A stretch of 64,000 nucleotides of DNA from a virus (IMGVR_UViG_3300025789_000018), one strand, 5' to 3'; positions 4,553-63,566 are shown, counted from the first letter of the stretch. The notes: generated by a model not told the origin, from the letters alone. A program made the numbers and translations.

Positions 4553-4935
4553 TGTTGTTCCTTTACATATCTGCCGTCGGGTGTTTTGGTTACTTTACCA
4601 TCTTTGATAGAAACCCAACCGATAATCGAGTAGCCTCTTTCTTTCCAGTCGGGTGCTTGCGAAAGTAGGGTCTTATTATATATGACGACAAACTGTTTAA
4701 CGTGTGCTTGTTGGTAGTCTCTATAAGAGAGAACATATGCACGATCATCTGGATTGGTTTGCTCTGAAGCCATCTTCGAAGCCGCATTGAATGCGCCGTT
4801 TCTGTCATTGTACATAAGAGAAGGATTCTTTAACACATCCTGTTTAGGTTGTGGTTGCCCTTGCTGGCCTTGTGGACCAGCAGGAATAGAAGCAACTTCA
4901 CTTTCCTCGATGATGTATCCTAGATATGTTTTCAT
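4549..4935 (-). CDS. Hypothetical protein, possible capsid-targeting N-terminus
   Basis: MKTYLGYIIEE resembles the T4 internal-protein CTS MKTYQEFIAE. Confidence 0.6.
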   Translation of the reverse strand: MKTYLGYIIEESEVASIPAGPQGQQGQPQPKQDVLKNPSLMYNDRNGAFNAASKMASEQTNPDDRAYVLSYRDYQQAHVKQFVVIYNKTLLSQAPDWKERGYSIIGWVSIKDGKVTKTPDGRYVKEQQ

Positions 4936-5052
4936 TACATTTCCTGTTTCTATTATTTATACTTCTAGTTAGGCATACTGAATACGTATAGCAGGAATAT
5001 ATACCGTATTTGCAAAATACTACTTTGGTCTTTGGGATTGATTATAGTTGGA

Positions 5053-7041
5053 TTAAACAATAGCAGTGACAAATGTGTTATATGTATTTCCATCTAAACA
5101 AAAGTACTTTACATACATTAAATTGTGTGTACATAAGTAAAATGACTGCCCACCAGTTGCTTGTGTTCCTGATCTTAGACTATGATTGAACTGTTGAGTA
5201 CCACCAATATTATTAAAAATGAATAATTCAATTGATCTACCAGCACCTGAACTTAGATTCTGAATGTTAGCAGTCAATGTTGCACCATTAGTATGCACAT
5301 AAATAATATTATCAGAAGCAAAGTCAATTAACACAGTATTCGATATAGCGGCATCAATTCGTACATTTGGTGCTTTGTATGCAGTACTTTGTGTGGTGTT
5401 ATCAGGGAAAGTAATGCCTGCATTTGCTTCAAGCGTAATATTGTTTGCTAACGTGTTTCCGTATATTGCCACGTTGCCTGAGAATGTAGCATTGTTAGAT
5501 GTTGTATTGCCTGTAACACTTAGATCGCCATATACATACGTATTATTTGCTGTAAATGCTCCATTTACTGTAGTTGCGTTTGATGTCATTAACATCGTTA
5601 CAGTAACTGTATTAGTTCCTAGTGGTGTTGTCCAAAATCTTAATGACGACCCTTGGTTTGCTACAGAGAAGTTTTCCGCTGTAACAAAGTCGATCCTTGC
5701 TGTTCCAGTAGAAGGAAATCCTGCGCCATCATATCCATTACCGCTAATACGTAAGATAACATCATTTGATGCTAAAGAAGTAGGTGCGCTGATTGTTCCT
5801 CTTGATGTTCTGCCAGCAATAGAGTTGTATACACCATTACCATAAGTGTCCATAACAAGACGATTGCTGACATTCGCAGAGTTGATAGCATACATCGTCA
5901 CACCAGGATCAGTAAATCCTTGTGGAGTTCCTAGCTGTGACTGAATGGTGAATGGTGCAGCGTTGGTTTGTGTGATAGGATTGATAATCTGTAGATTATT
6001 ACGGATTGTTGTTAATCCGTTGTTAGCCACTTCAAATGCAGATACAGCAGCATTTGCTACAGAGTTACCGATGTCTAGCGTTCTTTGGATTATGATTCTA
6101 CCGCCGTCACCAGGAGAACCGATAGTAAAGTCGTGTTGAGCATCAGCTAGTCTGATGGTATAGTTCTGTAGAATAACACCACCAGCATTGAAGCCAGCGT
6201 TTGCGTTAAATGTGGTGTTAGATCCTGAACCTTGTGTGATATAGAATACTTGATTCGCGAGAGACAGAACTTGGTCAGGTCCACCAAGAGTATCAGAGAA
6301 AGTGATAGAGTTAGAACCAACCCACAAAGATTCCCAACGATTGGTGTTGTTTCCTAGAGAATGGGCTAGTGAAACATCGGGATTTATACTTGAAGGTATG
6401 TGTAACCAATCAACCGCAGTTGTAACATTAGCGAACAAAAAGTTATTGGTACTTGAACTGTAACTTAGAAAATAGTTATTGACAAAAGTTGACTTGTCGA
6501 TGTCATCTAGATAGCGAAGATTGACTTCACCACCGCCTCCCATTTGTGACATGCGGGATGCAAATGAATGTAGATCAGTGATCGACTGTTTCATTTGCTG
6601 GATTTCAGCACGAACAGGATCAACCTTGACTACTTCTGGTCCTTCAGACTTCTTTGCAGTCTTAGTGATTGTGTCTGCCACTTTGTTTATGAAACTATCA
6701 GGCAATACAGGCTGTGGTTGTACTGGAGTAGCCTGAGAGTTAGGAACAGTGACTTCTCTAGAGTTAGCGTTCTTTATGTCAGCAAATGTATCTTCAACGA
6801 CAATAGGCTCCACAAACTCTTCCATGCTATCAACAAGAGAGTTGTGAAGTGTTTCGTTTTGCTTTTCCGTTGGTTTGATTTGGATGCCAAGTAGAGCATT
6901 CTCAAACTGTTCTAATAGTTTGCGCTCTTTCTCTTTCTTTGCAGCCGCTTCTTCAATCTGCTTAAATGCACTTTCTGAAACTTCTGGATTGCCCAGAAGT
7001 CTAGATAGATTATTCAGAAGTTTTTTCTCTTTCTCATTCAC
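5053..7041 (-). CDS. Virion structural / fibre-like protein (662 aa)
   Basis: Charged N-terminus, GGGGEVNLRYLDDID linker, long N/T/S/G-rich beta-type C-terminal part. Confidence 0.65.
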   Translation of the reverse strand: MNEKEKKLLNNLSRLLGNPEVSESAFKQIEEAAAKKEKERKLLEQFENALLGIQIKPTEKQNETLHNSLVDSMEEFVEPIVVEDTFADIKNANSREVTVPNSQATPVQPQPVLPDSFINKVADTITKTAKKSEGPEVVKVDPVRAEIQQMKQSITDLHSFASRMSQMGGGGEVNLRYLDDIDKSTFVNNYFLSYSSSTNNFLFANVTTAVDWLHIPSSINPDVSLAHSLGNNTNRWESLWVGSNSITFSDTLGGPDQVLSLANQVFYITQGSGSNTTFNANAGFNAGGVILQNYTIRLADAQHDFTIGSPGDGGRIIIQRTLDIGNSVANAAVSAFEVANNGLTTIRNNLQIINPITQTNAAPFTIQSQLGTPQGFTDPGVTMYAINSANVSNRLVMDTYGNGVYNSIAGRTSRGTISAPTSLASNDVILRISGNGYDGAGFPSTGTARIDFVTAENFSVANQGSSLRFWTTPLGTNTVTVTMLMTSNATTVNGAFTANNTYVYGDLSVTGNTTSNNATFSGNVAIYGNTLANNITLEANAGITFPDNTTQSTAYKAPNVRIDAAISNTVLIDFASDNIIYVHTNGATLTANIQNLSSGAGRSIELFIFNNIGGTQQFNHSLRSGTQATGGQSFYLCTHNLMYVKYFCLDGNTYNTFVTAIV

Positions 7042-30322: not shown

Positions 30323-30592
30323 TTAGTCTTCTTGAGCCTGTGTTACGTTCGAACTACGCTTGTAGTTGCCCCAATATTCATTGGCACGAACACGGATATT
30401 CAGCATGTTTGTCTGGTTCTTATTAGGATTGACAATGGTAATCCAAGGATTACGACCAGCACGCCATGCTTTAACAAGATCAAGTTCATGTGTTAGTGTG
30501 CAACGATCACGCTTCACAAGCTTTGAAGTTGCTTTTGAAACGTTTGAGTGAATACCTTTTGAGACCTTAGTCTTACGTGTACTAACTGCCAT
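30323..30592 (-). CDS. Conserved basic hypothetical protein
   Basis: SKG..SNV..AWRAGRNPWITIVNPNK..TN. Confidence 0.65.
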   Translation of the reverse strand: MAVSTRKTKVSKGIHSNVSKATSKLVKRDRCTLTHELDLVKAWRAGRNPWITIVNPNKNQTNMLNIRVRANEYWGNYKRSSNVTQAQED

Positions 30593-30611: not shown

Positions 30612-30685
30612 TGGAGCCTCATAACGGTACCTCCCCGTTTTCCTCTGGGTGGAAGCCAGATGCATTGATTCTATGCTAATGAGGC
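30612..30685 (-). tRNA. tRNA-Gly(UCC) with non-canonical D- and T-loops
   Basis: GCCTCAT-TA-GCAT-AGAATCA-ATGC-A-TCTGG-CTTCCAC-CCAGA-GGAA-AACGG-GGAGGTA-CCGTT-ATGAGGC-T-CCA; all four stems fully Watson-Crick. Confidence 0.85.
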
Positions 30686-30698
30686 AAAGGGTGTTTTA

Positions 30699-30768
30699 TA
30701 TAAGTAATATTGTCTGTCACGATACTACTAATATCCACAGACTCTAACGCTAAACAGGAGCATCAGCT
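30699..30768 (+). promoter_or_regulatory. Late promoter plus conserved hairpin leader, copy 2
   Basis: TATAAGTA; GTCTGT-CAC-GATA-ctactaa-TATC-C-ACAGAC-TCTA. Confidence 0.8.
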
Positions 30769-31362
30769 ATGGTTATTTATCTATACGTGAAGCAATGTGG
30801 TCATTGTGATATGAAATATTTTGGTTACACTAAAACAAAAAATCCTTTCAGATATAAAGGATCTGGTCAGTATTGGATCAGACACATAAAATCGCATAAC
30901 ATAACACCTATAACTTTAGAAGTACACACCTTCTATAACCAAGAAGACGCTACGGCATATGCTATTTCGTTCTCACAAGAAAATGATATTGTCGAATCTA
31001 AATCTTGGGCAAATCTTGTACAGGAAGACGCTAAACCTGGAAATGTGGGATGTAAATATCACACAGGACCAAGATCGGGGTTAACTGAAGAATCGAGAAT
31101 CAAAATGGGACTTGCGAACAAGGGGAAGAAACGATCATCTGATACTATAAAAAAACTTTCAGATTCACACAAAAACAGAAACAAAACTCAACTAGAAATA
31201 GATCGTTTAACTAGTCTACACAAGAAAAATGTAGGTAAAAAAAGATCAACTGAAACAAAAGAAAAAATGAGACTTGCTCAACTTGGTAAAGTTCCAAGTG
31301 AAGAGACTAAGAAAAAAATAAGCGAAACATTAAAAAATAAACATCAAGGCAAAAGATCGTAG
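30769..31362 (+). CDS. GIY-YIG-like (Seg-type) homing endonuclease with NUMOD3-like repeats
   Basis: IYLYVKQC..C.MKYFG, YKGSGQYW; RSSDTIKKLS, RSTETKEKMR, PSEETKKKIS. Confidence 0.8.
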   Translation: MVIYLYVKQCGHCDMKYFGYTKTKNPFRYKGSGQYWIRHIKSHNITPITLEVHTFYNQEDATAYAISFSQENDIVESKSWANLVQEDAKPGNVGCKYHTGPRSGLTEESRIKMGLANKGKKRSSDTIKKLSDSHKNRNKTQLEIDRLTSLHKKNVGKKRSTETKEKMRLAQLGKVPSEETKKKISETLKNKHQGKRS

Positions 31363-31574
31363 AACCTGCCCGTTTTCTGTCCAACAGCACGAACTCGGTT
31401 CTTAGGATATCTCTTTTTGGTATACTCTAATGCACGAGCAATAGACTGCGCACGATTAGGAACACCGCCTTCAACTCTACGCCAGCTATCATCAACACCT
31501 AGAACTTCAATCTGAATGTTCTCTGGTGTCTCTGTTGTCGATTCTTTGAAAGCTTTGAATATTTTCATTTTCAT
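31344..31574 (-). CDS. Small late protein
   Basis: TATAAATA at 31580-31587; MKIFKAFKE N-terminus. Confidence 0.6.
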   Translation of the reverse strand: MKMKIFKAFKESTTETPENIQIEVLGVDDSWRRVEGGVPNRAQSIARALEYTKKRYPKNRVRAVGQKTGRFYDLLP

Positions 31575-31592: not shown

Positions 31593-31669
31593 TGGTCTAC
31601 CATGAGAGATTTGAACTCCCGATCTCCTGGCCCCAAACCAGGCGGATTACCAGACTTTCCTAATGGTAG
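31593..31669 (-). tRNA. tRNA-Pro(UGG)
   Basis: Cloverleaf; CCTGG-TTTGGGG-CCAGG; TTCAAAT T-loop; encoded CCA. Confidence 0.92.
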
Positions 31670-31779: not shown

Positions 31780-31853
31780 TGGTGCCGATAAGAAGAATCG
31801 AACTCCTGTCAGAGGGTTACAAATCCACTGTATTACCACTATACTATATCGGC
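31780..31853 (-). tRNA. tRNA-Thr(UGU)
   Basis: GCCGATA/TATCGGC acceptor, TTTGTAA loop, TTCGATT, CCA; two mismatches in the anticodon stem. Confidence 0.85.
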
Positions 31854-34094: not shown

Positions 34095-34171
34095 TGGCTC
34101 CCTAGATAGGATTCGAACCTATAACGACAAGATTAACAGTCTTGTGCCCCTACCGATAGGGCCCCTAGGGA
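34095..34171 (-). tRNA. tRNA-Asn(GUU)
   Basis: TCCCTAG/CTAGGGA, CAAGA-CTGTTAA-TCTTG, TTCGAAT, CCA; G8 and U14 are atypical. Confidence 0.9.
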
Positions 34172-47355: not shown

Positions 47356-48060
47356 TCACCTTTCTTTTACAAAGCGACCATTTTGGTCTTGTTTTGATAA
47401 TCTTTTTTTAGCTTCATTACTTTTTATGCCAACATATAGTCCTTTATTGTTGAGGAATATTTCCCTATCGATCTTCAATATGTTTCCATCCAAATCTACA
47501 CAGACAACTTTACTCTTATTGTTGTAACCAAGTTTGGTTCCAATATCTTTCGCTGCAAGTCTTCTTATTTGTGACTGTTCATGTCCAAATATTTCTTCCC
47601 AAGTCTTATCTTTTTTCGCTAAAGATTGTTTTTGTTTGGTGTGTTCAGATCGTTTACACCCAAAAGATGGGTTGTGTACACCAAACATACGAACTTTTTT
47701 TCTTGATCCGGACGCATATGCAGAAACTAAACTATCAGATATGAGGGATTTTGTATGATCGGAAGTAATAAATCCACATCCTCTACCACCATATCTACCG
47801 TTTTCTGATTTTAGATTTGCCCACTCTTTGGATTGAACTATGTCATTTTTTTCTGAGAAGATCAAAGCAAACGTTGAACATAATTCCTGATCATCAAACC
47901 CAAAAATTTCTAAAGTTGTCTGTGTGGATTTATGTTTCTTTAGATGACGTATCCAATATTTTCCTGATCCTCTATATCTGAAAGGATCAGTATTCTCGGT
48001 TTTGCCGAAATATTTGAGTCCGCAATGTGTGCATTGTTTGACATAGAGATAAATAGTCAT
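47356..48060 (-). CDS. GIY-YIG-like (Seg-type) homing endonuclease
   Basis: IYLYVKQCTHCGLKYFGKT, YRGSGKYW; paralogue of 30769 and 59653. Confidence 0.8.
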   Translation of the reverse strand: MTIYLYVKQCTHCGLKYFGKTENTDPFRYRGSGKYWIRHLKKHKSTQTTLEIFGFDDQELCSTFALIFSEKNDIVQSKEWANLKSENGRYGGRGCGFITSDHTKSLISDSLVSAYASGSRKKVRMFGVHNPSFGCKRSEHTKQKQSLAKKDKTWEEIFGHEQSQIRRLAAKDIGTKLGYNNKSKVVCVDLDGNILKIDREIFLNNKGLYVGIKSNEAKKRLSKQDQNGRFVKER

Positions 48061-59141: not shown

Positions 59142-59656
59142 GTTAAGCGGGTGTATGTGTACTCGCGATATGAAAACTCTGCTGTAGCCGTAACGTAGTT
59201 TACATCAGTTTCAGTGGAATCAAATCTGAAACCCGACAGTGAAATGGGGTTGACATCACTAAATGTGATCTTAAGATTTGGATTCATTGTACCATTCAAT
59301 ACAATCAAGTCCGCGTCTACCAGAACACCGAAACCGTTTGGTTGTGCATTCAATGCTGCATACTGATTGAAACTCTCTGGAGTACCAATACCAGTCATCC
59401 AGTCATAGATTTCAAAGTAGTTGTACATGTCTTCATCGATCTTGAATGTCAACGAGAATGTATCAAACGTCAATGGAGTACCTGGCAACTGCATCTTACC
59501 GAAAGGTGTCTGTTGATTTCTGCTAGTGCTTAGACTGATGCGAGGAAAATCAAAGCTTTGGGCAAAGTAGTCAACATTTGGATTCTTGGTGAGATTAAAC
59601 TTATAACCAAGCGGGCTGAGAAAGTCGATTGATACAGGTTGAGTTGGATTTGTCAT
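59138..59656 (-). CDS. 3: Tail completion / sheath stabiliser gp3
   Basis: FLSPLGYKF, F.IDEDM.NY.EIYDWM, FDSTETDV.Y.TA.A.F.Y; synteny. Confidence 0.8.
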   Translation of the reverse strand: MTNPTQPVSIDFLSPLGYKFNLTKNPNVDYFAQSFDFPRISLSTSRNQQTPFGKMQLPGTPLTFDTFSLTFKIDEDMYNYFEIYDWMTGIGTPESFNQYAALNAQPNGFGVLVDADLIVLNGTMNPNLKITFSDVNPISLSGFRFDSTETDVNYVTATAEFSYREYTYTRLT

Positions 59657-60276
59657 AAAACATCTTTCTTTTTGTATGGACCTCGTTTGATTCCAGTTCG
59701 CGCTAATCCGCTTTTTCTTCCTGCTTCATTCATCAATTCTTTTGGTCTAGATTTTTGTGCGATAGACTGTTTTTCTTTCCAAACATCACCTCTATTTCTT
59801 GCATTTTCCCTAAACGCGCATAGAGTAGCTTCCGAATACACTCCAGTTTTTCCTTTATTCCAGGGCTCTTTACCAAGTAGGATTTTAGATTTATTATCTT
59901 TCCATTCCTGAGTACGCTCGTATTTGCCCATTTTTGCGCTATTAGATTTAGGCTTCCTCATCTTCTGCCTGGTCTCTTCGGTGTGTTGCCATCCTGATAT
60001 TCTGCCGGCGCTTATATTCTCTACGATCAGATTGGCCCATTCTTTAGATTCTACTATATTATTATCTTCGGAAAACTTGATTGCAAAATCTCTAGCTTCT
60101 TCCTCGTCATAAAACGAGAACAACTCTAACGTTTCTTGTTTAGAATTGTGTTTTTTTAGATGATCTTTCCAGTAGATTCCAGAACCCGTATATGATATGG
60201 GATCGGATCCCATTGTTTTACCGAAATATCTCAGTTCGCAGTGTGTGCATTTTTTCACATAAAGATGTATTGCCAT
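59653..60276 (-). CDS. GIY-YIG-like (Seg-type) homing endonuclease
   Basis: IHLYVKKCTHC.LRYFGKT, YTGSGIYW, HTEETRQKM, PWNKGKTG; TATAAATA at 60304-60311. Confidence 0.8.
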   Translation of the reverse strand: MAIHLYVKKCTHCELRYFGKTMGSDPISYTGSGIYWKDHLKKHNSKQETLELFSFYDEEEARDFAIKFSEDNNIVESKEWANLIVENISAGRISGWQHTEETRQKMRKPKSNSAKMGKYERTQEWKDNKSKILLGKEPWNKGKTGVYSEATLCAFRENARNRGDVWKEKQSIAQKSRPKELMNEAGRKSGLARTGIKRGPYKKKDVL

Positions 60277-61944: not shown

Positions 61945-62023
61945 GCGCTGGTATGCCGCCTGACTTCTAATCAGGAGAAAGCTAACTGGACACATGGGGG
62001 TTCGAATCCCTCCCAGCGCGCCA
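61945..62023 (+). tRNA. tRNA-Arg(UCU)-like RNA lacking a D-arm, with D-loop-like sequence in the variable region
   Basis: GCGCTGG-TATGCCG-CCTGA-CTTCTAA-TCAGG-AGAAAGCTAACTGGACACAT-GGGGG-TTCGAAT-CCCTC-CCAGCGC-G-CCA. Confidence 0.7.
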
Positions 62024-62051: not shown

Positions 62052-62261
62052 TTGATTATGATTGAAGGGTTGAACTTATGTATTCGAAGCACCGAAACTA
62101 TCAATAAAGGCATGGGCGGAAGAGATATGCCTTTGTATTATCTTAAAAAGTGTAAGACTGCACTTGAAGTTGCGACAGTCGCATTAGAAGAAGCATATGC
62201 TTCTGATGATGCAACAGAAATGCGACATATCATTTCTAATGCTCTGGAAGCTTTAAAGTGA
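62052..62261 (+). CDS. Hypothetical protein whose last 21 nt overlap a tRNA
   Basis: 69-aa ORF between tRNAs. Confidence 0.45.
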   Translation: MIMIEGLNLCIRSTETINKGMGGRDMPLYYLKKCKTALEVATVALEEAYASDDATEMRHIISNALEALK

Positions 62262-62314
62262 AGCCAGCCGCTCATAACGGCTAGAAGGCGGGGCAGTACC
62301 GTCACGGAGTACCA
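62241..62314 (+). tRNA. tRNA(CAU) (Ile2 or Met) with non-canonical elbow
   Basis: GCTCTGG-AA-GCTT-TAAAGTG-AAGC-C-AGCCG-CTCATAA-CGGCT-AGAA-GGCGG-GGCAGTA-CCGTC-ACGGAGT-A-CCA. Confidence 0.75.
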
Positions 62315-62571: not shown

Positions 62572-62646
62572 GCGCGATTAACTCAGCGGTAGAGTGCTGT
62601 CCTGACTCGACAGATGCCGGAAGTTCGATCCTTCCATCGCGCACCA
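62572..62646 (+). tRNA. tRNA-Val(GAC)
   Basis: Cloverleaf; CTGTC-CTGACTC-GACAG (U37 atypical); CCA. Confidence 0.9.
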
Positions 62647-62649
62647 ATA

Positions 62650-63231
62650 TTATTGTGAAACTCTAAAAGCAGAACTTACACCCAAGGTAAACTTGTGTTC
62701 GCTATAGCCAATGTCAAACTGTAGATTCTGTTTCTTAGGTGGAACCCATGAAACATAGATGCCAGTTTTGACCTTTGTGTCATAGTAGACAGAAGGCATG
62801 ATTGTAAGTGTATCTGTTGGTGTAAAGTTGTATTCAGTCACATATGTCTGTGAATGTTTAGCAATCTGAACATCTGTACCAAAGTAAAAGTATTTGTTAA
62901 AAACATACTTTGATGGCACTTCAATGAAAACACCATTGTTATTATCGTATCCTAGCTTGGCTGATAAGTCAAACTTGTGATTATAAATGATAGCATACTT
63001 TGCACCAAAGCTGGTGTTATCTTTGGATACTTCTAAGTCCTTTGCAATAGCCATTCTAAACTCATAACCATCAGTACCTATTTCAGCCTGAAAAGTTTTA
63101 AGTGGAATGACGTCAGCATCGATACCTACGCCTGGTCTATCAGCATTGATCTGTTGATCTTCCGCGAGTGCTGGAGCAGAGAACAGAAGTGTTAGTGCTA
63201 CTATTACTGCTTTTGTTCTACGTAGCCACAT
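62650..63231 (-). CDS. Putative outer-membrane beta-barrel protein
   Basis: Signal peptide ending PALA; I.ADRP..P..FQ.E.G like MetA-pathway/phenol-degradation barrels; alternating beta pattern. Confidence 0.55.
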   Translation of the reverse strand: MWLRRTKAVIVALTLLFSAPALAEDQQINADRPGVGIDADVIPLKTFQAEIGTDGYEFRMAIAKDLEVSKDNTSFGAKYAIIYNHKFDLSAKLGYDNNNGVFIEVPSKYVFNKYFYFGTDVQIAKHSQTYVTEYNFTPTDTLTIMPSVYYDTKVKTGIYVSWVPPKKQNLQFDIGYSEHKFTLGVSSAFRVSQ

Positions 63232-63566
63232 CCTGCTTTGTCCTCATGGAGTGATGTTAGTTCGACATGCATTGCTTTGATTTCAGCAAACTCGGCCAAG
63301 ATCGTTTCGTGATCTTGCTGGCTTCTAGCTTCTGTCTTTCTGGCTTGAACTTCTTGACCTACCATGATTACACTAAGTAGAACTAGTTGAAGAAATGTCT
63401 GTGCGATCCATGAGATTGTAGCTGCAAGCCCAGCGTGAATAGCGTCTGGTAGACTGATTAGAGCCAACAAAGCAAACGCATAAGCACACCACATGGTGCC
63501 TACTGTATCTGTAAGGGTCACTGCAACCATGTCGTTGAACTTAGTGATGTTATCTTTGATAGACAT
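63204..63566 (-). CDS. DUF1003-like membrane protein
   Basis: GTMWCAYAFALLALISLP..WIAQTFLQLVLLSVIMVGQ. Confidence 0.65.
   Translation of the reverse strand: MSIKDNITKFNDMVAVTLTDTVGTMWCAYAFALLALISLPDAIHAGLAATISWIAQTFLQLVLLSVIMVGQEVQARKTEARSQQDHETILAEFAEIKAMHVELTSLHEDKAGCGYVEQKQ

Follow-up and report, generated by a model that had tools for sequence, protein, structure and literature searches.

A probable glycine tRNA gene with a fully swapped elbow in a T4-like freshwater phage, and its place in a class of elbow-swapped tRNAs from phages and mobile bacterial arrays

The stretch of viral DNA analyzed here (IMGVR_UViG_3300025789_000018, 64,000 nucleotides, referred to as the window) comes from a T4-like freshwater phage and very probably carries, at 30612-30685 on the minus strand, a functional glycine tRNA gene whose elbow has had each of its three base contacts exchanged for a matching alternative. 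Judging from sequence comparisons, we put at roughly 0.8 the probability that this is a functional tRNA-Gly(UCC) used in phage translation, with a swapped elbow, which is a derived member of a larger class and arrived with a homing endonuclease gene. The canonical contacts, G18-pseudouridine-55, G19-C56, and T54-A58, are textbook near-invariants; TrmA, TruB, RNase P, the ribosome, and T-boxes recognize them, and tRNA gene finders depend on their presence.

Results

The tRNA-Gly(UCC) gene

A sequence-only reading of the window had described an exact cloverleaf here, ending in U73 and CCA and bearing odd D- and T-loops, and this description holds in full. The gene and its immediate downstream neighbor are laid out as follows.

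30612..30685, minus strand: tRNA-Gly(UCC) gene with encoded U73-CCA, 5' end at 30685 and CCA at 30614-30612 (from the sequence, MFE fold, Rfam, 21/21 pairs, and the L003 copy)
30666..30672, minus strand: D-loop AGAAUCA, without G18G19; A18 is 30669 and U19 is 30668
30651..30653, minus strand: anticodon UCC within the 7-nt loop CUUCCAC (U33, A37), kept in 8/8 aligned tRNA-Gly homologues
30628..30634, minus strand: T-loop GGAGGUA; G54 is 30634, G55 30633, A56 30632, G57 30631, G58 30630, U59 30629, and A60 30628
30323..30592, minus strand: downstream open reading frame (ORF) of 89 aa, PHROG 23239, function unknown, with its start codon 19 nt past the tRNA-Gly CCA

The 74-nt sequence (the reverse complement of 30612-30685) comprises the acceptor stem GCCUCAU/AUGAGGC followed by U8-A9, the D arm GCAU-AGAAUCA-AUGC followed by A26, the anticodon arm UCUGG-CUUCCAC-CCAGA, the variable region GGAA, and the T arm AACGG-GGAGGUA-CCGUU, then U73 and CCA. 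All 21 of the 21 stem pairs are Watson-Crick, and the MFE fold is the exact cloverleaf, with an energy z-score that by itself is only -2.0. In a cloverleaf scan of both strands of the window, the combination of 21/21 pairs and a CCA end occurred only here and at three tRNAs called by ARAGORN (Asn, Lys, and Val), which argues that the gene is not a chance set of hairpins. The near-universal G18, G19, U54, U55, C56, and A58 are all missing, while G53:C61 and the purine at position 57 are kept.

It had also been anticipated that standard scanners might miss such a gene, and both that we used did. ARAGORN reported 7 tRNAs in the window without calling this one, and the Rfam tRNA model missed it in a whole-window scan at the gathering score, owing to the fast filters. 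With relaxed filters, RF00005 gave a full-length match (1-71) scoring 42.2 bits, where 29 is the gathering score.

The identity set of Escherichia coli glycyl-tRNA synthetase (GlyRS) comprises U73, G1:C72, C2:G71, G3:C70, C35, and C36. The phage tRNA carries U73, G1:C72, C2:G71, C35, and C36, and its 3:70 pair is C:G rather than G:C; this pair varies among tRNA-Gly homologues (G:C, C:G, A:U, and U:G). The 83-nt spacer between tRNA-Gly and the divergent endonuclease gene contained no convincing promoter, and a promoter and terminator scan near the gene returned nothing above background.

Homologues of the gene

Identical copies of the gene are present in three near-identical contigs (L004, L005, and L013). 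A more informative copy, in L003/L223, is identical in its acceptor stem, in its D and T arms, and in the two odd loops and differs at three anticodon-stem pairs, each changed on both sides, at loop position 38, and at one variable-loop base. No flanking proteins of the window were shared with L003/L223 at an E value of ≤1e-5. This A56/U19 form of tRNA-Gly is rare, being found in two lineages only, and a metagenome scan for further copies of the type returned one L003-like copy only.

We aligned eight tRNA-Gly(UCC) homologues, taking in, beyond the gene itself, three elbow-swapped tRNAs from genome bins, one tRNA from a viral contig, the sister allele described below, and one canonical tRNA. 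In this alignment, 98.3% of the cells pair and 16 of the 22 pairs are changed on both sides; none of 500 shuffles reached the observed value on four of five measures, and 1/500 did so on the fifth. The 19:56 pair is G:C in five homologues, U:A in two, and A:U in one, and is thus always complementary. Exact searches with the D arm alone or the T arm alone gave mostly chance matches outside tRNAs.

A class of elbow-swapped tRNAs

The sequence-only reading had pointed to a CAU tRNA at 62241 as sharing the odd elbow, and this second member is present in the same phage as described.

62241..62314, plus strand: tRNA(CAU), D-loop UAAAGUG and T-loop GGCAGUA, with A8/U14 and A18 G19; an ORF at 62052-62261 runs into its first 21 nt

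Its acceptor stem contains a G7xA66 mismatch and two G-U pairs, and it scored 20 in our own cloverleaf scan. It was missed by ARAGORN, and by Rfam even at an E value of ≤1; a model built from the two Gly sequences gives it 40.9 bits, above ordinary tRNAs. The gene is identical in the nearest related record (G001), which does not cover the Gly locus.

When IMG/VR was scanned for CCA-ending sequences with the shared T-arm pattern, at least 118 viral contigs were identified. Among the matches listed, at least about 70 different tRNAs could be parsed as cloverleaves, and between them they serve 14 or more amino acids (Ala, Cys, Asp, Glu, Gly, His, Ile, Lys, Met, Pro, Gln, Thr, Val, and Trp). Members among these matches have a T-loop of the form GGC(A/G)GUA (class pattern GGCRGNA) and D-loops such as AAAAGUA and UAAAGUG, with AG in place of GG, and nearly all have an encoded CCA. 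Again among the matches listed, the 53:61 pair is G:C in 62/62, position 60 is A in 59/62, and A18 accompanies G55 in 60/61; the 19:56 pair is mostly G:C in the class and is A:U in a tRNA-Pro (L177) and in the L015 Gly allele. The window tRNA-Gly shares with these members G54, G55, G58, A60, G53:C61, A18, a Watson-Crick 19:56 pair (U19:A56), and a location in a tRNA array.

The genomic setting of the class is that of tRNA clusters. Of 90 occurrences among the matches listed, 81 lie within 500 bp of another tRNA gene on the same strand; the locus holds a second tRNA gene with the same anticodon for only 5, and ARAGORN calls only 5. Cultured Streptomyces phages carry members as well: gene 175 of Jay2Jay, a tRNA-His, is annotated simply as a tRNA, and its counterpart in phage Bmoc lacks annotation. 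Erythrobacter phage XM05 carries an unannotated variant of the class. Some model phages were considered as earlier examples and rejected: the annotated tRNAs of T5, the tRNA-Met of phage K/ISP, and the Arthrobacter phage tRNAs that we examined have ordinary T-loops.

The class is not limited to phages. A scan of one genome per prokaryotic species gave 25 cloverleaf members among 65 pattern matches, mostly inside long arrays of 11-24 tRNAs per 8 kb; array hosts include Chthoniobacter flavus, Nostoc and other cyanobacteria, Haliscomenobacter, and Verrucomicrobia. A few single-gene members occur in bins of Saccharibacteria, Woesebacteria, and Clostridia. The suggestion of a phage tRNA class with an alternative elbow therefore stands as regards the class, its many anticodons, and its clean covariation, but the class is not phage-only, being found also in mobile bacterial arrays and some CPR genomes. 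Open-access full-text searches found no published description or catalogue of it; a few members are annotated as plain tRNAs.

Pairing rules of the elbow

Because a search on the T-arm pattern is circular with respect to the elbow, we rescanned all loci fetched from the matches listed for strict, CCA-ending cloverleaves with unconstrained loops, which gave 404 distinct genes. Their T-loop types (positions 54, 55, 56, and 58) include the following counts.

UUC.A: 220
GGC.G: 59
UGC.A: 30
AGC.U: 24
AUC.U: 15
UUU.A: 13
AUC.A: 12
UUA.A: 7
GGA.G (the type of the window tRNA-Gly): 2

About 47% of the T-loops in these loci are noncanonical, a frequency that is biased since the loci, fetched from the matches listed, were chosen on the T arm for holding a member. 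ARAGORN recovered 218/220 of the UUC.A genes, 4/59 of the GGC.G genes, and 0/2 of the GGA.G genes in the same loci from the matches listed.

The identity of position 55 goes together with that of the D-loop. In these loci from the matches listed, genes with U55 have GG in the D-loop (215/220, 15/15, and 12/12 across T-loop types), and genes with G55 have AG and no GG (51/59, 27/30, 21/24, and 4/4). Likewise, D-loops accompanying U56 mostly contain GA and those accompanying A56 mostly GU. For the 136 genes from the matches listed that have a 7-nt D-loop, numbering is unambiguous, the fourth and fifth loop residues acting as nucleotides 18 and 19. In this set, 18:55 is G:U in 71 genes, A:G in 60, G:G in 1, and A:U in 0 (Fisher P = 3e-37, uncorrected for phylogeny), and 19:56 is G:C in 128, A:U in 5, and U:A in 2. 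Across all 404 genes from the matches listed, 54:58 is U:A in 277, G:G in 65, A:U in 39, A:A in 12, and C:A in 7. These tallies indicate that the three contacts are swapped independently of one another; in the window tRNA-Gly, all three are swapped. The numbering first assigned to this gene from its own sequence (A18, U19:A56, G54, G55, and G58) agrees with the covariation over hundreds of related tRNAs. From that covariation, we infer that A18-G55 and G54-G58 adopt a geometry equivalent to that of the contacts they replace.

These rules bear on two readings under which the gene would not serve decoding. One is that a tRNA pseudogene is decaying here, or that the tRNA shape serves only as a signal for processing of the downstream ORF, the endonuclease having carried it along. 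Both universal loops are off consensus, the ORF starts 19 nt away, and tRNA look-alikes exist at 61945-62020 in the window and at 740-810 in L003. However, there is no stem mismatch, the stems and the 19:56 pair vary in a compensated way, the loop changes follow the class-wide pairing rules, and the anticodon loop is intact and conserved, and we regard this reading as very unlikely.

The other, likewise very unlikely in our view, is that the gene is a nonproteogenic tRNA-Gly of the staphylococcal type. The staphylococcal NP1-NP3 are tRNA-Gly(UCC) species without G18-G19 and U55 and so have the same superficial signature (PMC13443448). Against this, the same elbow is found, among the matches listed, on tRNAs for 14 or more amino acids in ordinary arrays; the anticodon loop has the usual 7 nt, with C32 and C38 and no extra pair; the allele that was replaced at the locus likewise encodes a tRNA-Gly(UCC), one whose elbow is only slightly changed; and no Fem- or Mom-like gene was found among the neighbors examined.

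A published tRNA operon with an elbow-swapped member

An experimental anchor for the class is provided by the trn operon on the delta plasmid of Anabaena/Nostoc PCC 7120. Its last gene is a tRNA-Ile(GAU) with the D-loop AAAAGUG and the T-loop GGCAGUA (NC_003273, L289:4003-4077). ARAGORN missed this gene, and its 24 calls plus 2 equal the published 26; the elbow-swapped gene is the only GAU tRNA found in the operon. The operonic tRNA-Ile(GAU) has been detected and found to be aminoacylated in vivo, its charged form giving a band of "aberrant migration"; polysomes contained every operonic tRNA tested, and a homing endonuclease gene adjoins the operon (PMC8421152). The elbow goes unmentioned in that paper (PMC8421152). 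From the gene count (24 + 2 = 26), we infer that the published charged tRNA-Ile(GAU) is the elbow-swapped gene.

In the L-array paper, operonic tRNAs are proposed to substitute for damaged tRNAs or to absorb toxin RNases when translation is under stress. One explanation for the swap would be protection at the RNA level, by which the swapped elbow would evade T-loop tRNases of competitors or defense systems, or host surveillance, with array tRNAs acting as a nuclease-proof backup. A tRNase of this sort exists in CdiA-CT of Burkholderia pseudomallei E479, whose cleavage site lies between the T-loop's conserved T and its pseudouridine (PMC9086364), and the elbow variants in arrays are very diverse, with the roughly 47% of noncanonical T-loops seen in the T-arm-biased loci from the matches listed. 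Yet no T-loop-targeting defense system is linked to these phages, and most array tRNAs are canonical. We consider such protection a possible but doubtful explanation.

The phage and the exchange of alleles at the locus

The window belongs to a T4-like phage, with a family-B DNA polymerase, a gp41-type helicase, UvsW, and a Rad50-like ATPase, and the segment 30300-31900 was found in 24 DNA sequencing runs from 21 freshwater metagenome studies; none of the runs listed was of RNA. Comparison of this region with GenBank phages gave no match by megablast, and blastn matched the ordinary tRNA-Pro only. Features around the tRNA-Gly are as follows.

30769..31362, plus strand: free-standing Seg-like homing endonuclease gene, 197 aa, divergent from tRNA-Gly and 83 bp away
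30628..31368, no strand assigned: replacing segment, comprising the endonuclease gene and most of tRNA-Gly; in sister contigs its place is taken by 84 bp with another tRNA-Gly(UCC) allele (BLAST of the window against L015)
31593-31669, minus strand: ordinary tRNA-Pro gene (ARAGORN and Rfam)
31780-31853, minus strand: ordinary tRNA-Thr gene (ARAGORN and Rfam)
34095-34171, minus strand: ordinary tRNA-Asn gene (ARAGORN and Rfam)

The Pro, Thr, and Asn genes thus lie on the strand of tRNA-Gly, all within 3.5 kb. The tRNA regions of these phages also hold tRNA look-alikes that do not decode, such as those at window 61945-62020 and L003 740-810.

The 197-aa protein contains four NUMOD3 stretches (Pfam) and is assigned to PHROG 314 ("homing endonuclease"). 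Annotated Seg-like GIY-YIG endonucleases of Straboviridae align with 95% of its length at 30% identity. Pfam matched NUMOD3 alone and did not confirm a GIY-YIG domain, and a PDB sequence search gave no match. Similarity to T4 SegB was undetectable (BLASTP E = 0.27), and the protein is a Seg-like NUMOD3 protein of another lineage.

Three sister contigs (L014-L016) have an identical helicase protein and flanks 96-99% identical to the window but no endonuclease gene. Homology with L015 ends at window position 31369 and restarts at 30627, within the 3' strand of the T stem. The sister allele (L015:12007-12080) is a tRNA-Gly(UCC) with the D-loop AGAGAUU and the T-loop UUUGAGU, that is, with G18 and A19:U56, and in L039, a more distantly related contig, the tRNA-Gly is canonical throughout (AGGGGUU/UUCGAAU). 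With the window allele, this makes three elbow versions of tRNA-Gly at one locus. Endonuclease-bearing and endonuclease-free alleles of the locus therefore exist in close relatives, and the fully swapped version is the one physically coupled to the endonuclease gene. Homing with co-conversion, as demonstrated for T4 SegB and its tRNA region (PMC2330249), would be expected to leave such a pattern. The alignments indicate that the tRNA-Gly came in with the Seg-like endonuclease gene, ousting an allele still present in sisters that are 96-99% identical.

The coupling raises the possibility that selection acts on the DNA, the altered T arm conferring immunity to Seg-like homing endonucleases of the adjacent gene or of coinfecting phages and the D-loop changes compensating for it. 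T4 SegB recognizes GGTTCRANTCC at the 3' ends of tRNA genes, plus CCAR, and drives inheritance of the tRNA region (PMC2330249), and SegB homologues are enriched beside tRNA genes (PMC13096335). The GGTTCRANTCC motif is absent from the window gene, which is five specified positions off, and the sister T arm (GGTTTGAGTCC then CCAA) is one base off. The endonuclease gene lies 83 bp from tRNA-Gly, the pair replaced the sister allele, and related phages have three tRNA-Gly elbow versions at this one locus. On the other hand, the window endonuclease is not detectably related to SegB, and the other eight tRNAs of the window keep ordinary T arms. Class members among the matches listed are not enriched beside endonuclease genes, either within 300 bp (3/90 versus 40/742) or within 1 kb (9/90 versus 90/742), and in L003 the nearest endonuclease-like genes (HNH at 1879-2277 and a SegB-like match at 4575-5129) are about 1 kb or more from the tRNA. 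Immunity of this kind at the locus is, in our view, rather unlikely; it would be compatible with tRNA-Gly being a working tRNA. As an explanation for the whole class, homing-endonuclease immunity was dropped, as there is no enrichment and the window endonuclease is not a SegB homologue; we retain it at the level of the locus only.

Discussion

Taken together, our data are best accounted for by a functional phage tRNA-Gly(UCC) with an alternative elbow. It would be transcribed from the minus strand and trimmed at its 5' end by RNase P, and the encoded CCA would make CCA addition unnecessary. Host glycyl-tRNA synthetase would charge it by way of U73, G1:C72, C2:G71, C35, and C36, and the tRNA would read GGA/GGG. 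Its L-shape is predicted to be held by A18 with G55, U19-A56, and G54 with G58 in place of the canonical contacts, with the outer 19:56 pair, the stacking platform for RNase P and the ribosome, retained. Lacking U54, U55, and A58, it should be no substrate for TrmA, TruB, or the m1A58 methyltransferase. The gene appears to be a derived member of a widespread family with the T-loop GGCRGNA and an A18-G19 D-loop, housed in phage clusters and mobile bacterial arrays, and probably arrived together with the Seg-like homing endonuclease gene, replacing the resident tRNA-Gly allele.

Why the elbow should be swapped at all is a separate matter. A tentative proposal is that the elbow of phage and mobile-array tRNAs is under diversifying selection, by modular swaps, against factors that read the T arm (T-loop tRNases, surveillance, and SegB-type endonucleases). 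Swapped tRNAs would then form a backup decoding set that is nuclease-proof and independent of modification, with tRNA-Gly as the extreme case. Alternatively, the swap may be neutral, representing another optimum that accessory tRNAs can tolerate.

Whatever its origin, these comparisons suggest that nature uses at least one complete alternative elbow, with A18:G55, G54:G58 or A54:U58, and any Watson-Crick 19:56 pair, on tRNAs for most amino acids. One consequence is that tRNA counts in phages and metagenomes are underestimated, as ARAGORN detects about 7% of the swapped type in the loci from the matches listed, and analyses of codon usage and host prediction that rely on phage tRNAs miss swapped genes. 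The pairing rules also offer natural scaffolds that cannot receive the T54, pseudouridine-55, and m1A58 modifications and that may be invisible to T-loop-reading enzymes. The locus itself is a clean natural experiment, with three tRNA-Gly elbows in near-identical phages, one of them coupled to an endonuclease. What is new here is the modular three-pair rule, the fully swapped Gly, the endonuclease-coupled replacement of an allele, the link to bacterial L-arrays, and the tying in of published charging evidence.

Comparison with known systems

Ordinary phage tRNA-Gly(UCC) genes (T4, NC_000866 72291-72364; L039:16363-16436) resemble the window gene in length (74-76 nt), anticodon UCC, U73-CCA, G1:C72, and C2:G71, and in their place in a phage tRNA cluster beside Pro and Thr genes. 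They differ in having the canonical G18G19 and UUCGAAU, in contrast to A18/G55, U19/A56, and G54/G58 in the window.

T4 SegB homing is likewise a case of a free-standing endonuclease gene amid phage tRNA genes, in which the bearing allele replaces the free allele together with flanking tRNA sequence (PMC2330249). The window endonuclease, unlike SegB, has no detectable SegB similarity to place it in that lineage, and its gene lies on the strand opposite to the tRNAs.

Several tRNAs that lack the canonical elbow nucleotides differ from the window gene in how they do so. Type II animal mitochondrial tRNAs and tRNA-Pyl are also without G18, G19, and the T-psi-C motif (PMC7609411). In them, the contact between D- and T-loops is lost or rebuilt in shortened loops, whereas the window gene has loops of standard size and covarying partners. 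A term search of a 2020 review of noncanonical tRNAs (Sec, Pyl, and mitochondrial) found no mention of viruses or the elbow. The staphylococcal nonproteogenic tRNA-Gly(UCC) species NP1-NP3 share the lack of G18-G19 and U55 (PMC13443448); the window gene, unlike them, is not shortened in the anticodon loop (CUUCCAC, with C32 and C38 unpaired), and its elbow is common to many specificities.

The closest parallels are other members of the class. The tRNA-His(gtg) of Jay2Jay (KM652554 95456-95529) has the D-loop AAAAGUA and the T-loop GGCAGUA and sits in a phage tRNA array, but it serves another amino acid and has G:C at 19:56. The Anabaena tRNA-Ile(GAU) has the same elbow type, lies in a mobile array beside a homing endonuclease gene, and is missed by ARAGORN; it differs in its amino acid (Ile), in a 19:56 pair of G:C, in having no encoded CCA, and in residing on a bacterial plasmid.

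A fourth tertiary swap and other elbow types in the arrays

In addition to the swapped elbow, a fourth tertiary swap, A8:U14 in place of U8:A14, was observed in 24 of 404 array tRNAs (distinct strict CCA-ending cloverleaves, from loci chosen by their T arm), and was frequent among Lys- and Trp-type members. The sequence of one tRNA in the window carries it:

62241-62314 (+), CAU tRNA with A8:U14

The first 21 nt of this gene double as the coding end of an ORF at 62052-62261.

Elbow types other than GG..G were also frequent in the same arrays as class members. Counts are for the tRNA arrays of viral loci L102-L216, with types coded as T-loop nucleotides 54, 55, 56. 58 (canonical UUC.A):

AGC.U (A54:U58, G55, A18), 24 genes
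UGC.A (18:55 swap alone), 30 genes
AUC.U, 15 genes
UUU.A with G18 A19, 13 genes
UUA.A with G18 U19, 7 genes

ARAGORN recall for the AGC.U type was only 15/24.

Look-alikes and neighboring genes

Two tRNA-like genes without a D arm were found, one in the window and one in L003, a contig with a copy of the window's tRNA-Gly gene that differs mainly in the anticodon stem:

Window 61945-62020 (+), tRNA-like gene, Rfam 40.9 bits, not called by ARAGORN
L003 740-810 (-), second tRNA look-alike, immediately 3' of the contig's Gly gene

The window gene has ~4 nt in place of the D arm, anticodon UCU in the loop CUUCUAA, and an extra region of 17 nt, with an ordinary CCA and T arm (UUCGAAU); the copy in the related record G001 is identical. 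The L003 look-alike has acceptor GCGGGGA/UCCCCGC followed by U and CCA, T-loop AUCGUUU, and, in the place of the anticodon arm, a long stem with a C-rich 5-7-nt loop.

Other genes of interest were as follows:

Window 59653-60276 (-), Seg-like NUMOD3 endonuclease, 2 kb from the CAU tRNA
Window ~47593-48060, Seg-like NUMOD3 endonuclease
Window 62572-62646 (+), ordinary tRNA-Val(GAC)
Window 62650-63566 (-), pair of small ORFs
L003 995-1878 (+), pair of small ORFs

Within the window's 64 kb, the two endonuclease genes are further copies or relatives of the one next to the tRNA-Gly gene. The tRNA-Val anticodon loop, CUGACUC, has U at position 37, a pyrimidine at a site that is normally a purine. 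Judged by eye, the small-ORF pair looks common to the window and L003, and in both it is flanked by tRNA genes that run on the other strand; a Pfam scan of the window pair gave one DUF1003-like match and one weak outer-membrane beta-barrel-like match.

Comparison with known RNAs

An 81-nt element in ~30 viral contigs (e.g., L192, L102, L121, and L204) carries a 5' GGGGUAG...GUUUCGACG and an ACCA. No message part was visible in it, and it looks like a stand-alone version of the tRNA-like domain of tmRNA. The alanine mark G3:U70 is present, and the T arm, CACGG-GGCAGUA-CCGUG, is of the swapped type, as in the class.

The Anabaena 7120 trn operon (L289; NC_003273 45833-53909) has an HNH endonuclease gene ~0.2 kb upstream of the array's first tRNA gene. 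Its charged operonic tRNA-Ile(GAU) was described as showing "aberrant migration" (PMC8421152), which may be just an effect of the swapped elbow.
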